This document shows, piece after piece, positions 47,842-64,000 of a stretch of DNA of 64,000 nt. The notes beneath the pieces were generated by a model that worked only from the letters and a program-made list of their open reading frames with translations, made no database searches and was not told where the DNA came from. The first letter of the stretch is position 1; every line of letters starts with the position of its first letter. This DNA comes from Vampirovibrio sp. (GTDB taxonomy: Bacteria; Cyanobacteriota; Vampirovibrionia; Vampirovibrionales; Vampirovibrionaceae): assembly GCF_041737375.1 (NCBI RefSeq), contig NZ_JBGSRV010000006.1, forward strand, positions 134,022-198,021, written 5' to 3'. A program made the position numbers and the translations under genes.

Positions 47842-47868
47842 AAAAAACCTCCGGCTTAAACGGAGGCC
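47842..47868 (-). terminator. Intrinsic terminator (cctccgg-N7-cggagg) with U-tract on the minus strand, immediately 3' of the tRNA-like fragment
   Basis: A 6/7-bp GC stem. The A6 run at 47842-47 becomes T6 on the minus strand, directly after the hairpin. Confidence 0.5.
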
Positions 47869-47879
47869 TTCAAAAAAAG

Positions 47880-47960
47880 TGGTCGGGATGACAGGATTTG
47901 AACCTGCGACCCCTTCGTCCCGAAGGATGATCTTGAAAACCGACTTCCCGAAAGGGTTTC
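47880..47960 (-). other. tRNA 3'-half-like fragment (variable-arm hairpin, T-arm GCAGGTTCAAATCCTGT, acceptor 3' strand, discriminator, CCA) without matching 5' half; probable att-site remnant
   Basis: The minus strand reads ...CCTTCGGGACGAAGGGGTCGCAGGTTCAAATCCTGTCATCCCGACCA. This carries the canonical T-loop and CCA end. No complementary 5' acceptor strand (CGGGATG) or D/anticodon arms are found. Confidence 0.5.
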
Positions 47961-48166
47961 CAGGATCCTTGTGGACTTTTCAGAAATTTTACGTCGCAAA
48001 AAATCACTTTTACGCCCCAGATTTCTAAAAGTTGATCCTGATTCTTTATACCACATCAGCGTTTAGAGAATACTCTACATATACCTGTCGACACAAGCGC
48101 GACATAAAATTTCAGGTTTGAGCACTTTGGTAAAGCAGTTGTCTGTTCTTTTTTTCAATCGAGGGG

Positions 48167-48508
48167 TTAGAGTGTTAGCTGCACTTTTATGATTTGCTCA
48201 ACTGTCGCAAGGTCTTTTCTGGAGAGCGTTCCAAGTTGGGTCTTTAGACGTTCTTTGGCTGCCGTAGTGAGTTGACTGGCGATGGCTTTGCTTTGAATGC
48301 CGTCAATGGTAACCAGGCACTCTGCCGGGTAGAGTTTAGTGATTTTGCTGCTTAAGGGGATTACTTGGACTCGGTTTAGATATCGATTGGATTCGTCATT
48401 GCTGATGATGACCGCTGGTCGAGTTTTTTGAATCTCTCCGCCCAGTGAAGGGTCAAAGGCTATCCACCATACTTCGCCCCGTTTAGGATGGTTCACGGAC
48501 GTCCCCAA
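48167..48508 (-). CDS. Type II toxin, MazF/PemK-family endoribonuclease
   Basis: RGEVWWIAFDPSLGGEIQKTRPAVIISND matches the PemK/MazF N-terminal motif. It overlaps the upstream small antitoxin gene. Confidence 0.7.
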   Translation of the reverse strand: MGTSVNHPKRGEVWWIAFDPSLGGEIQKTRPAVIISNDESNRYLNRVQVIPLSSKITKLYPAECLVTIDGIQSKAIASQLTTAAKERLKTQLGTLSRKDLATVEQIIKVQLTL

Positions 48509-48710
48509 TCAAGCTGTTAGACCATTCTAGGGCTTCTTTTTCTTGAGCTTCATCTTCCGAGGCCATCCGGTAACCTTCGGCAAGACCGCTGCGCACAACA
48601 TGTGGCCGCGCTAAATCTTCCAGGAATTGACTGATATTGCCAGGCCCTACAACCGCCTGCAGACCTTCATAGACATCTTCGGTAACCGTGATGGTCAACT
48701 TACGTTTCAT
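48483..48710 (-). CDS. Type II antitoxin (MazE/PemI-like partner of the MazF-family toxin)
   Basis: A 75-aa acidic-tailed protein overlapping the toxin start by 26 nt. The TA-typical arrangement is the main support. Confidence 0.5.
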   Translation of the reverse strand: MKRKLTITVTEDVYEGLQAVVGPGNISQFLEDLARPHVVRSGLAEGYRMASEDEAQEKEALEWSNSLIGDVREPS

Positions 48711-49653
48711 GAGGGCTACTCCTTTACACGTATGATAACACGTGTGATTGAAATTTCAAGCCATGAGCACAAGCCATCTGCAACATGACCAAGGGACAAC
48801 CCTTGTGGCCGTTAAGGTAACAACCGAGCGCCGCAATTCGTGGCAGGGGTTATGGCCACCGATGCCAGCGACCCTGGTTTTTTCAAACGCCATCCGAAAG
48901 TCAAAGCAATTCAGGGCTTCTCCAAAAAACAAGTCTTTTTTAAAGAGCCCAATAGTTTGTTTATTAAAGTTTAAATAGTGGGCCATCGCCGACTTGAACA
49001 CCGGGCCTCATCCTTACCAGGCCTGAGATGCACATTTTTAGACGGTTTTCAGCTATTTTTACTTATTTTAGGTCCTTTTTGAGGGGCGATCAAGGACTTA
49101 GACGAACTGGCCAAGTCTCAAAAGTATATCAATCCCTGGGTTTTAGCCCCTATCCTGCATTTGGATGAGGGCAAAAGCGGACGTATACGGGTCTATCTGG
49201 ATCTGGGCTGTTTGAAAGCGTTCTAATCAGTTCTTATCGGGGTTAAACGGTTCTATCCTGCCTGAATTTGGACACAGGAACTTCCCCTTATAGCCTTATT
49301 CCACACTATCAGGCTCTTTAAGCCTGATTCTTGAAGCAGGCTTTGTGAAAGACTGTCGCAGAGCGGGTTTTAAAAATCGCTAGATTGCTTGCTATTGAAG
49401 TGTTTTGGCGAATGTTACAAAACTTCATCGCTCTAGCCCATGTGCCCCAAGGGATAACAAGATCATAAATATCATTATCTATGGTTTTAAAAACAGGTAT
49501 TTAATACTGGCACTAGGTCATCCATATCCATTGCTTCGAGCTCGCCGGAAGGCTCAATACGGATGATGACTTTGCCTAGGTTTAGGCGCTTGTTCGCACG
49601 CCTGCCAAGGCGTCACTTCACGCTGAAAAGTTTTTGAAAGGAATCCCTTCATC

Positions 49654-61770: not shown

Positions 61771-61995
61771 GGCTTTCTACCTCCTGCTCCTATTGTAGCC
61801 CATTTGGGATACAATCGCTAGAGGATGCGATTTGAAACGATACTTATAAAATATTGTTTCAAAAAGCGCGCTTAGGCTCAAGCCCTAAAAAGCCAAAGAA
61901 CTCTGATTTTTCAGGACTCTGGGTATCTTGGCAACTTGGTCAAAGCACAGAAACTGAAACAGAATTACCTATTCTGTTTCAAATGAATAAGTGGT

Positions 61996-62697
61996 TTAAC
62001 CCTTGTGGTTTAGAAGGAGCTGCTCAAAGAAGCCACCAAAGCGCCTTTCTTTGTCCACAAGATGAATTTCCAGAATCCAATGCCTTGGGTTGCCGAATTG
62101 GTCTGGATTACTCATTAGTGTGTGGTTCTCAGGATGAATGTAGTGAAGCGCATCATCCCCTAGAATTTTCTCATGGGGGAATTGACCAACCAGGTGCCCC
62201 GCATAAGGGCCGCCATAGACCCAGCCATGCTCAGAGGATAACTGACAAGCATACTGGTAAAGCTGACTGCCGGTTACTTGCCCACAATGCTCAATGAAAA
62301 ACCGCTGGGCTCGCTTAAAGATGATTTCCAAGTCGTTGTTTAGCTTATGCTTAAGTGGGTCATCACCAAGTACATAAGTTCTGCCATAGTCTGCTTCCCA
62401 GTCATCAAAAACAGGGCCAAAATCCAGGAAAACAATATCGTCTTCTTGAACAGTCAGGTTTTCAGGGTTATGTCGGTAAGGTAGTAGCGTATTCTCACCT
62501 GCTCGAACAATCCGTTTATGCCAGTATTTACGGATGCCGAAGAGTTTAAAGGCTAGTTCATAGACCTTATCGCTGATCTCCCGTTCTGTTAGGCCTGGAC
62601 AAATAAGCCCTTGCGACTCTACAGCATGAAATAATGCCTCGGCCTTAGTTTCTGCCTGAATAAGAGCCTTTAAAGTATCGGTATTAGTTGGTGGCAC
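61996..62697 (-). CDS. M24-family (pita-bread fold) metallopeptidase-like protein, short form
   Basis: Weak similarity to the creatinase/prolidase/MetAP fold (ENLTVQEDDIVFLDFGPVFDDWEADYGRTYVLG; HLVGQFPHE). The assignment is tentative. Confidence 0.35.
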   Translation of the reverse strand: MPPTNTDTLKALIQAETKAEALFHAVESQGLICPGLTEREISDKVYELAFKLFGIRKYWHKRIVRAGENTLLPYRHNPENLTVQEDDIVFLDFGPVFDDWEADYGRTYVLGDDPLKHKLNNDLEIIFKRAQRFFIEHCGQVTGSQLYQYACQLSSEHGWVYGGPYAGHLVGQFPHEKILGDDALHYIHPENHTLMSNPDQFGNPRHWILEIHLVDKERRFGGFFEQLLLNHKG

Positions 62698-63163
62698 AGG
62701 GTGGAAATCGCATATCGTTCTGTTAGTCTCTCTAATCCTAGTTCAAAAACGTTAAAGAGTAAAAATGCCCTATCAGGCTTGGGTCTGATAGGGCATTAAG
62801 GCTTTATTTGGAGACAGAATTACTTATTCTGTTCAAGAAGCTGCGCTTTCGTATGCAAAAGAGGGTGGCTTTTGTCAGGGTCATTCGGCATTTCTTGAAG
62901 AGTGGTCTTTAAAAAGGCCCCTTATAAGGGCTCAAATGTTGTAGCCCTTATCGGAGTCCTACAAAGGCTCGACACTTGGGCACTGCCTTCTTCAAAGAGA
63001 AGACAACTCTTTATTGTTAGGGATTGTATAGGCAGAACTTTAAGTGGCAATGCGAGATCCTTGGCTTGCCTGGAAGAAGTTATCCATAATACTGGGATTG
63101 AAGGGCACCCTGTTTTGTTGGGCCGCTTGGGAAAATTTGCTCAGCATTGTTTTTACATAGAAC

Positions 63164-63628
63164 TCATACGGTAACTTTTTGAAGGCAGAGCATGGCACAG
63201 CCAAGCTGCCAGAAGGCTTCCCAGTTCTGCCAGTGATACTCGTAGCGGATTTCAAGCTTTCTAAATTTGCCCAGCCAGGCAAAGCAACGTTCAATGGTCC
63301 AGCGGCTTTTGTAAAGGTGGGGTCTTGGCGTTCTTCGGGCCGTATTGTTTCCAAACTGCCTGCGTGGAATCAAGGGACGCAATCCTTTGTGTCGCAAGCG
63401 TCTTCTTAGCCTTTTGCAATCATACCCCTTGTCCGCTGCCAGATAGGCATCTTTTGGAATTTGGTCTACAATATCTCCGAAGGCATAACGGTCATTTCGA
63501 CCCGCTGAATCCAGATGTAACGCTTCAGGCAGTCCGTTCTCGTCTACGACGAGGCTTATCTTGCTGCCTTTTATTTTCCCGGCCCGTGAAATTCTGTCGC
63601 CCTTTTTTTGCCGACTTAATCGTGGCAT
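63164..63628 (-). CDS. IS5-family transposase OrfB (DDE catalytic part)
   Basis: C-terminal motif YKSRWTIERCFAWLGKFRKLEIRYE. It overlaps OrfA by ~100 nt in another frame. Confidence 0.65.
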   Translation of the reverse strand: MPRLSRQKKGDRISRAGKIKGSKISLVVDENGLPEALHLDSAGRNDRYAFGDIVDQIPKDAYLAADKGYDCKRLRRRLRHKGLRPLIPRRQFGNNTARRTPRPHLYKSRWTIERCFAWLGKFRKLEIRYEYHWQNWEAFWQLGCAMLCLQKVTV

Positions 63629-63911
63629 CCAGATAATATAAACGCTTGTCGGTTAAGGGCTTTAGCGATTTCATTCGTTCAAACAACGCTTCATAAAAAC
63701 CTTCTTTAAGCCAAACCCTGAAGCGATCATAAACAGTCATCTTTGGCGGAAAGCCCGGTGGCATCTCTTCCCAGCGGATGTTAGTGGACAAAACAAACAA
63801 TATAGCGTCTAAAATCTCGCGGTTACGACTCCGGGGGCGGCCAGTTCTTTGTTTTGGAATGACTGGCTCAATCAGTTCCCATTGCTCGTCACTCAAGGGT
63901 CTCCAAGGCAT
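63525..63911 (-). CDS. IS5-family transposase OrfA (N-terminal DNA-binding part)
   Basis: MPWRPLSDEQWELIEPVIPKQRTGRPRSRNREILDAILFVLSTNIRWEEMP is the typical IS427-group N-terminus. Confidence 0.65.
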   Translation of the reverse strand: MPWRPLSDEQWELIEPVIPKQRTGRPRSRNREILDAILFVLSTNIRWEEMPPGFPPKMTVYDRFRVWLKEGFYEALFERMKSLKPLTDKRLYYLDATIKSAKKGRQNFTGRENKRQQDKPRRRRERTA

Positions 63912-64000
63912 ACGCTATCCTCTTCCAAACCCTGAAATTCTAACCCAAAGTTACCGTATTGGCTCAAACAAGATAAACAATGGGTAGAATGAAAAGAATC

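Follow-up and report, generated by a model that had tools for sequence, protein, structure and literature searches.

The 64,000-nt stretch of DNA analysed here, called the window throughout, comes from a Vampirovibrio sp. genome (RefSeq assembly GCF_041737375.1, contig NZ_JBGSRV010000006.1, positions 134,022 to 198,021 of the forward strand), and its right-hand part, from 47.9 kb onwards, begins beside a 45-nt piece of a tRNA-Pro(CGG) gene. The Vampirovibrio lineage comprises predatory, non-photosynthetic bacteria related to cyanobacteria. An initial annotation had described this part of the window as a decayed integrative island bounded by the 3' remnant of a tRNA or tmRNA gene. The features that bear on the left end of the island are the following (coordinates are those of the window):

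44461-47796, plus strand: native left flank, an operon convergent with the tRNA remnant and encoding an HlyD-like protein, a MacB-FtsX permease and an ATP-binding cassette (ABC) ATPase
47842-47871, minus strand: intrinsic terminator directly past the tRNA CCA end, an 11-bp hairpin followed by UUUUUU
47880-47924, minus strand: probably displaced 3' fragment of tRNA-Pro(CGG), nucleotides 33-77, an exact 45-nt match to 34 intact genes
47925-48166, unstranded: island-side arm beside the core, with the repeated motif GAAATTTTAYGTCGC and a terminator-like hairpin on the minus strand (47965-47946)

The tRNA-Pro(CGG) fragment and its surroundings

Read on the minus strand from 47924 to 47880, the fragment has the sequence TTCGGGACGAAGGGGTCGCAGGTTCAAATCCTGTCATCCCGACCA, which spans the 7-nt anticodon loop (TTCGGGA), the 3' strand of the anticodon stem, a 5-nt variable loop and the T-arm and closes with the 3' acceptor strand, the discriminator A and CCA. 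The T-arm, acceptor 3' strand and CCA had already been recognised on this strand in the initial annotation and prove to belong to an exact copy of tRNA-Pro(CGG) nucleotides 33-77. An exact-match scan found the 45-mer in 35 metagenome contigs, in 34 of which ARAGORN calls a complete tRNA-Pro(CGG) that ends in these 45 nt (77 nt long in 33 contigs, 74 nt in contig L091); in the 35th contig the tRNA is cut off by the contig end. It is because the 45-mer closes 34 complete genes called in this way that the fragment can be assigned to nucleotides 33-77. Over 52 nt it is also 87-89% identical to annotated E. coli tRNA-Pro genes (blastn, all complete E. coli genomes). The 35 metagenome contigs have nothing else in common with the window, and since the 45-mer is identical across many unrelated taxa, the fragment is not assignable to a host by its sequence.

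Homology to the intact genes sets in with nucleotide 1 of the anticodon loop. The 5' half is missing, as had been stated before: the 32 nt that precede the loop in intact genes, with the consensus CGGGATGTAGCRCAGYTTGGTAGYGCACTTCG, are replaced by unrelated sequence, and this consensus occurs nowhere in the 64-kb window even when three mismatches are allowed. Nor does the window repeat the fragment, or any of its sub-parts, elsewhere. With the 5' acceptor strand, the D-arm and the 5' strand of the anticodon stem absent, there is no complete cloverleaf as a functional tRNA-Pro gene would have. Applied to the whole window, ARAGORN and Rfam at its gathering threshold leave the fragment uncalled and report a tRNA-Thr at 25513-25588 as the sole tRNA, and at a relaxed threshold the Rfam tRNA model gives the fragment 21.5 bits (E = 0.074), the gathering score being 29.

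In that relaxed alignment, Rfam arranges 47880-47922 of the minus strand as an acceptor/T-arm minihelix, in which CGGGACG can pair with CATCCCG. The CGGGACG of the anticodon region resembles CGGGATG of the missing 5' acceptor strand, and the minihelix-like pairing probably comes about by coincidence, as a property of this tRNA-Pro sequence.

As judged from its letters, the source of the fragment is a class I tRNA, neither a tmRNA nor a long-arm tRNA. Of the two sources proposed in the initial annotation, the tRNA stood and the tmRNA (ssrA) fell, there being no ARAGORN or Rfam tmRNA match and the sequence being identical to tRNA-Pro(CGG). The hairpin CCTTCG-GGA-CGAAGG had been taken for a variable arm, as in tRNA-Leu, tRNA-Ser or tRNA-Sec, a reading rejected by the tRNA-Pro alignment, which places it at the anticodon arm and resolves it into the loop and the 3' stem of that arm.

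The intrinsic terminator that had been noted directly after the tRNA end is borne out by its 11-bp hairpin and U6 tract (-14.3 kcal/mol, z = -2.5) and was not reported by a simple terminator scan. A comparable hairpin with a T-run, judged by eye and unscored, lies 3' of most of the 35 intact tRNA-Pro(CGG) genes, and the retention of the terminator, apparently as in most intact genes, fits an original 3' end of a host gene. An encoded CCA is normal for this genome, since the tRNA-Thr of the window encodes one too.

The operon on the low-coordinate side matches HlyD_D23, MacB_PCD with FtsX, and ABC_tran in Pfam. Relatives were found by a scan of genome contigs with the ABC ATPase as query. This ATPase shares 82% identity with its counterpart in a Candidatus Melainabacteria metagenome-assembled genome (MAG) and 79% with the one in Vampirovibrio chlorellavorus, and within the window synteny with Vampirovibrionales relatives (68-82% amino acid identity) is confined to the three-gene operon. 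Its composition (44461-47796) is typical of that of 1-47 kb. A comparison of composition across the window, proposed with the initial annotation, revealed an abrupt shift: the tetranucleotide correlation with the 1-47.8 kb reference, calculated in 4-kb windows, is 0.92 +/- 0.03 on the left (minimum 0.845) and 0.54-0.75 in every 4-kb window to the right of 48 kb. The drop starts at 47.5-48.5 kb, i.e. at the fragment (1.5-kb resolution), and the composition stays deviant to 64 kb.

On the deviant side, the motif GAAATTTTAYGTCGC lies at 47983-47997 on the plus strand and at 48099-48113 on the minus strand, forming a 15-nt inverted repeat at 93% identity, and is accompanied by a degenerate direct copy at 48008-48019 (plus strand; direct-repeat spacing 21 nt). 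The copies are all found on the island side of the tRNA fragment, within 130 bp of it and downstream of mazF, and no further copy with up to one mismatch occurs in the 64 kb. Their arrangement is reminiscent of arm-type sites and makes them candidate binding sites for a recombinase or an accessory protein. The junction between island and fragment is contained in the Logan contig L124, which covers 51044-47884 at 100% identity and ends inside the tRNA fragment at 47884, short of the terminator and the ABC side; L124 and a further contig, L001, are Logan contigs from SRR28170467. Ends of Logan contigs were not used as a sign of a second repeat copy, since these contigs also break where no repeat exists.

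Probable integration at the anticodon loop and its alternatives

Displaced tRNA fragments are standard single-nucleotide-precise markers of integrated mobile DNA. In the Islander collection a 3' tDNA fragment is found in 3760 of 3919 islands and an anticodon-centred site in 2083 of the 3919 (PMC4383910), and the stretch that runs from the anticodon loop as far as the CCA end is a standard extent of attB (PMC4383910; bioRxiv 10.1101/2020.11.02.365908). Partial tRNA genes of ~44 nt are a recognised by-product of integration, an example being a 21-kb island flanked by 44-bp repeats (PMC9897764). At 1-4 kb downstream of the intact tRNA-Pro(CGG), 4 of the 35 contigs with the 45-mer (L096, L117, L106 and L114) encode a full-length tyrosine integrase (328 aa and 390-413 aa) that has a SAM-like domain at its N-terminus, which argues that other bacteria use this tDNA as an attachment site. 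Contigs L092/L113 have a large serine recombinase near an intact tRNA-Pro(CGG) with identical 3' 45 nt. The loci in the four contigs and in L092/L113 resemble attachment sites of unrelated bacteria that are already occupied. IMG/VR yielded neither the 45-mer nor the island/core junction and therefore offers no phage attP candidate.

With a probability of roughly 0.7, we hold that site-specific integration at the anticodon loop of tRNA-Pro(CGG) left the displaced tDNA fragment. An element with a tyrosine integrase, carrying in its attP a copy of tRNA-Pro(CGG) nucleotides ~33-77, would have recombined with the chromosomal tRNA-Pro(CGG), the crossover falling within the anticodon loop. Once joined to the 3' copy brought by the element, the host 5' half would again have been part of an intact gene, now at the far end, at higher coordinates and beyond the window, and the host's own 3' part (47880-47924) would have been displaced and would have stayed by its terminator and the convergent ABC operon. 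Because the fragment lies on the minus strand with the terminator on its low-coordinate side, DNA inserted here, if any, must be at higher coordinates, and everything from 47925 rightwards would be inserted DNA. The polarity observed, with native DNA 3' of the fragment and deviant DNA 5' of it, is as expected for a displaced host end. The inserted DNA would later have been overlaid by IS3, IS5 and IS21 insertion sequences (ISs), by a low-GC ankyrin/AAA patch and by a plasmid-derived segment with a recombinase and toxin-antitoxin (TA) genes, and would have decayed via nonsense, frameshift and truncation mutations; the region most likely consists of one or several integrated elements that have become a decayed mosaic. 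We infer that site-specific recombination made the break, that the sequence beyond 64 kb contains the intact partner tRNA or formerly did, and that an integrase other than the small recombinase of the window was responsible. The initial annotation is thereby upheld in its geometry (orientation of the fragment, side of the terminator) and largely in its list of genes; the tmRNA and the variable arm are given up, and the interrupted integrase is probably not the enzyme responsible.

The arrangement resembles class 'A' of the Islander islands (Hudson, Lau & Williams 2015, PMC4383910) in the orientation of the fragment, in the block that runs from the anticodon loop as far as the CCA and in the foreign, mobile-rich DNA; a correctly oriented displaced tRNA fragment lies at one end, and the sublocation of the crossover is the canonical anticodon loop. 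It differs from them in that only the fragment end is within the window, without intact tDNA, direct repeat or full-length integrase, and whereas Islander requires 'putatively active' islands, this one looks damaged and mosaic. The attR partial tRNA genes described in PMC9897764 are alike in their ~45-nt 3' remnant adjoining integrated foreign DNA, but they are delimited by one partial copy and one complete one, while here the partial copy stands alone. According to a secondary account, pSAM2 of Streptomyces ambofaciens also has a tRNA gene as its integration target (Mazodier et al. 1990, cited in PMC2853133). It belongs to a different phylum, and this integrative conjugative plasmid is both intact and active and has its own int and xis, while the window has nothing intact of this sort. 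The isoacceptor family that it targets and the sublocation within it are reportedly the same as in the window.

Several points must be set against an integration of this kind. The window contains no intact tRNA-Pro and no second 45-mer, so that the direct repeat is unseen. In six Vampirovibrionales/Melainabacteria loci that share only the ABC operon, no tRNA lies near this operon and no empty site was seen, and since synteny is lost on both sides of the operon, these loci are uninformative on the empty site. The window has a single tyrosine recombinase, a 195-aa enzyme of a family found on plasmids and contigs resembling integrative and conjugative elements (ICEs), and the six contexts of its homologues that were examined are free of tRNAs within 10 kb. 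A classical integrase is absent from the window but may be encoded beyond 64 kb. E. coli can dispense with tRNA-Pro(CGG), and a truncation without a partner would therefore be tolerable.

Such a truncation is the core of an alternative that we regard as unlikely, though it deserves serious attention, namely that the fragment is a partnerless truncated pseudogene whose 5' half was removed by an IS-mediated deletion or illegitimate rearrangement that brought foreign DNA alongside. The IS3 element, the two IS21 stubs, the IS5 element and the IS5 scrap described below could have mediated deletions, and the lack of a partner tRNA, a repeat and a classical integrase in the window speaks in its favour. 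However, the position of the break coincides exactly with the 5' edge of the anticodon loop, to within 1 nt of which a random break would come in ~4% of cases by a rough estimate, no IS end abuts the fragment, from which the nearest IS is 4.8 kb away, and the 240 bp adjacent to it on the right are unique sequence with the local motif repeat, followed by an intact mazEF. Integrative elements carry such tRNA 3' copies in attP (PMC4383910), and with a 45-mer that is identical across many unrelated taxa one might take the segment for an element-borne, attP-derived piece with the ABC operon side as an arbitrary neighbour. This is very improbable, given that the segment is followed by a tRNA-style terminator and then by DNA of native composition that is syntenic with Vampirovibrionales, that the compositional break lies at its 5' side and not at its 3' side, and that the tRNA-Thr of the window likewise encodes its CCA.

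A shade less credible again is an assembly or binning chimera that joins the ABC side to the mazEF side at a shared tRNA sequence. The source is a MAG, the 45-mer is identical in many taxa and L124 halts at 47884 inside the fragment, all of which would suit a chimera, yet one made at a shared tRNA would normally join complete tRNA contexts, while here unique sequence replaces the 5' half. Furthermore, L124 holds the replacement junction at 100% identity, and Vampirovibrionales-linked proteins occur on both sides (the ABC operon with 82% identity to the Melainabacteria MAG, and an ORFan from Vampirovibrio sp.). That the mazEF transcript would end 3' in a functional tRNA-like acceptor/T-arm minihelix with CCA, formed by the fragment, is hardly believable, even though the Rfam tRNA model aligns the fragment in this manner: its score of 21.5 bits (E = 0.074) is under the gathering threshold, the minimum free energy fold favours an anticodon-type hairpin with a stability that is not significant against shuffled sequences (z = -1.65), and the pairing is inherent to any tRNA-Pro(CGG) with this acceptor stem, so that no selection is needed to account for it.

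Under the favoured site-specific integration, the fragment would set the exact left boundary (47924/47925) of horizontally acquired DNA in a Vampirovibrio-like genome and would name tRNA-Pro(CGG) as a likely attachment site in the Vampirovibrio lineage. The phenomenon is a textbook one and involves no new mechanism; what is mildly new is the host lineage and the module of the small recombinase. For annotation it follows that the 45-nt tRNA remnant is not to be called a tRNA gene and that the run of pseudogenes should be flagged.

The small tyrosine recombinase and its upstream module

Two features make up what appears to be the plasmid-derived part of the region:

60663-61250, minus strand: pseudogene of a 195-codon tyrosine recombinase consisting of the catalytic domain only, with one TGG to TAG change at 60885-60887
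61830-61981, minus strand: conserved non-coding module, usually just upstream of the recombinase gene, with 78-80% nucleotide identity to two copies in contig L082

The nonsense-interrupted tyrosine integrase named in the initial annotation is real as far as the interruption goes. Codon 122 is TAG at a position occupied by Trp in all close homologues (193-200 aa, up to 89% identity), the frame is otherwise open to its normal stop, and L001, 100% identical over 60747-63187, likewise carries the TAG. A role as the integrase of the island is unlikely. The homologues are uniformly proteins of 190-200 aa with a Phage_integrase domain only; they occur on 40 PLSDB plasmids (52-63% identity), and the plasmid- or ICE-like contigs of relatives carry genes for RepA_C, MobA, a relaxase, a coupling protein and ParA. 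As these relatives sit on plasmids and ICE-like contigs without a tRNA nearby, the recombinase of the window is probably plasmid-derived cargo and not the enzyme that made the tRNA junction.

Consisting of a catalytic domain only, the 195-aa recombinase is similar to FimB/FimE-type invertases and to Xer-type single-recombinase systems with a dif-like site. Its upstream palindrome and its relatives on plasmids also fit such systems. It scores far under the family cut-offs, its matches to the NCBIfam XerA/XerC/XerD and tyrosine-invertase models being sub-threshold (51 bits vs 220; 31 vs 221), and neither paired sites nor an invertible segment were found for it.

The module (~150 nt) holds a perfect 27-bp palindrome, TGAAACAGAAT-AGGTA-ATTCTGTTTCA, at 61955-61981, which has no other occurrence in the window, together with a terminator hairpin and an inverted repeat TTTGAAAC..GTTTCAAA. 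The plasmid-like contig L082 contains two copies of module plus recombinase gene (4473-5226 and 14848-15226), each after a gene for an RHS toxin and a small open reading frame (ORF), and comparison with this contig suggests that relB-yafQ was inserted between the module and the recombinase gene in the window. The palindrome is a possible dif/lox-like site. It seems quite improbable that recombinase and module form a self-contained unit for capturing or shuffling cassettes, an undescribed integron-like or shufflon-like system; were it true, a cassette system and not classical tDNA integration would have built part of the island.

Genes and fragments from 47.9 to 64 kb

The remaining features to the right of the fragment are, from left to right:

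48167-48710, minus strand: mazE-mazF type II TA pair (PemK_toxin, E = 1.8e-24)
49654-51336, plus strand: 560-aa ORFan with Gly- and Gln-rich stretches, matching itself only
51333-52064, minus strand: 243-aa protein of unknown function, without Pfam, NCBIfam, PADLOC or PHROGs match
52411-52620, plus strand: 69-aa ORF, weakly excisionase/HTH_17-like (HTH_17, E = 0.046, 14.4 bits, cut-off 27)
52731-53836, minus strand: decayed IS3-family element with its transposase in three ORFs (HTH_Tnp_1, HTH_21, rve)
54010-57663, minus strand: low-GC patch (38-40% GC) with an ankyrin-repeat protein, a 265-aa unknown protein and a ClpA/B D2-like AAA+ ATPase
58458-58515, plus strand: scrap (58 nt) of a transposase gene of the IS5 type, matching 63249-63306 in reverse complement at 83% identity
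59180-59575, plus strand, and 59896-59468, minus strand: two head-to-head N-terminal stubs of IS21 transposases (NCBIfam transpos_IS21)
60093-60613, plus strand: parD followed by a frameshifted parE pseudogene (ParD_antitoxin, TIGR02606)
61247-61770, minus strand: relB(dinJ)-yafQ TA pair (YafQ_toxin, E = 2e-32; RelB, E = 2e-13)
61996-62697, minus strand: divergent M24-family peptidase (Peptidase_M24, E = 6.5e-21)
63160-63962, minus strand: IS5-family IS with a two-ORF transposase (DUF4096 and DDE_Tnp_1) and 13-nt terminal inverted repeats

To the right of 47.9 kb there are thus accessory and mobile genes only, with five kinds of pseudogene or fragment among them. The region from 47.9 to 64 kb contains no phage genes by Pfam or NCBIfam, as a prophage would, its PHROGs matches being limited to the recombinase, and none of the relaxase, type IV secretion system or coupling-protein genes that would mark an ICE or an integrative and mobilizable element. 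All three TA modules listed in the initial annotation are present, namely mazEF, relB-yafQ and parD with a frameshifted parE, whose C-terminal half (ParE_toxin) is found in another frame at 60455-60613; the mazE of the first pair is a 75-aa ORF overlapping mazF upstream and weakly MazE-like (NF050104, E = 0.005). The AlpA/Xis-like gene assigned to 52411-52620 is harder to sustain, as its HTH_17 match lies below the cut-off, and this 69-aa ORF has no NCBIfam or PHROGs match. The 560-aa ORFan belongs to no Pfam, NCBIfam, PADLOC or PHROGs family, and a search against 5.8 billion clustered proteins retrieved only the protein itself, WP_373531539.1 (Vampirovibrio sp.).

The low-GC patch stands out at 54-58 kb, where the GC content is 38-40% and that of third codon positions (GC3) is 0.33-0.34, compared with about 0.5-0.58 in the flank. 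Pfam identifies Ank repeats (E = 1e-49) and AAA_2/ClpB_D2-small in it. The AAA+ ATPase has an NCBIfam match to the C-terminal half of ClpA/ClpB and weak PADLOC matches to DolB (3.9e-17) and PDC-M37B, and the ankyrin-repeat protein matches PDC-M72A of PADLOC at 1.9e-34. Inverted repeats of 16 nt at 53879-53894 and 58421-58436 bracket the patch, and 53879-58436 could be a separately acquired defence-like cassette. A reading of 55185-57663 as istA/istB of an IS21 element was rejected, the genes encoding the ClpA/B-like AAA+ ATPase and the unknown protein, and the IS21 remnants lying at 59180-59896. Rejected as well was the idea that the M24 peptidase is a core methionine aminopeptidase that ends the island at 62 kb, for it reaches 21 bits against a TIGR00500 cut-off of 171; the composition at this gene is still deviant.

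The IS3, IS5 and IS21 copies or fragments that had been reported earlier are supported by Pfam and NCBIfam. The IS3 remnant spans positions 1-81 and 97-292 of the 369 positions of transpos_IS3, with the ORF 52731-52871 as its C-terminal scrap. The IS5 element covers positions 5-123 and 110-258 of transpos_IS5_3, and its inverted repeats lie at 63166-63178 and 63947-63959; the last 41 nt of the window have no match in the JGI metagenome contigs. The two IS21 stubs correspond to positions 2-102 and 3-107 of the 294 positions of transpos_IS21 (E = 3e-21 and 1.5e-22), are 50-60% identical to each other at the amino acid level and overlap at 59468-59575. They form a large imperfect palindrome within 59073-60015, the arms of which lie at 59073-59117 and 59971-60015.

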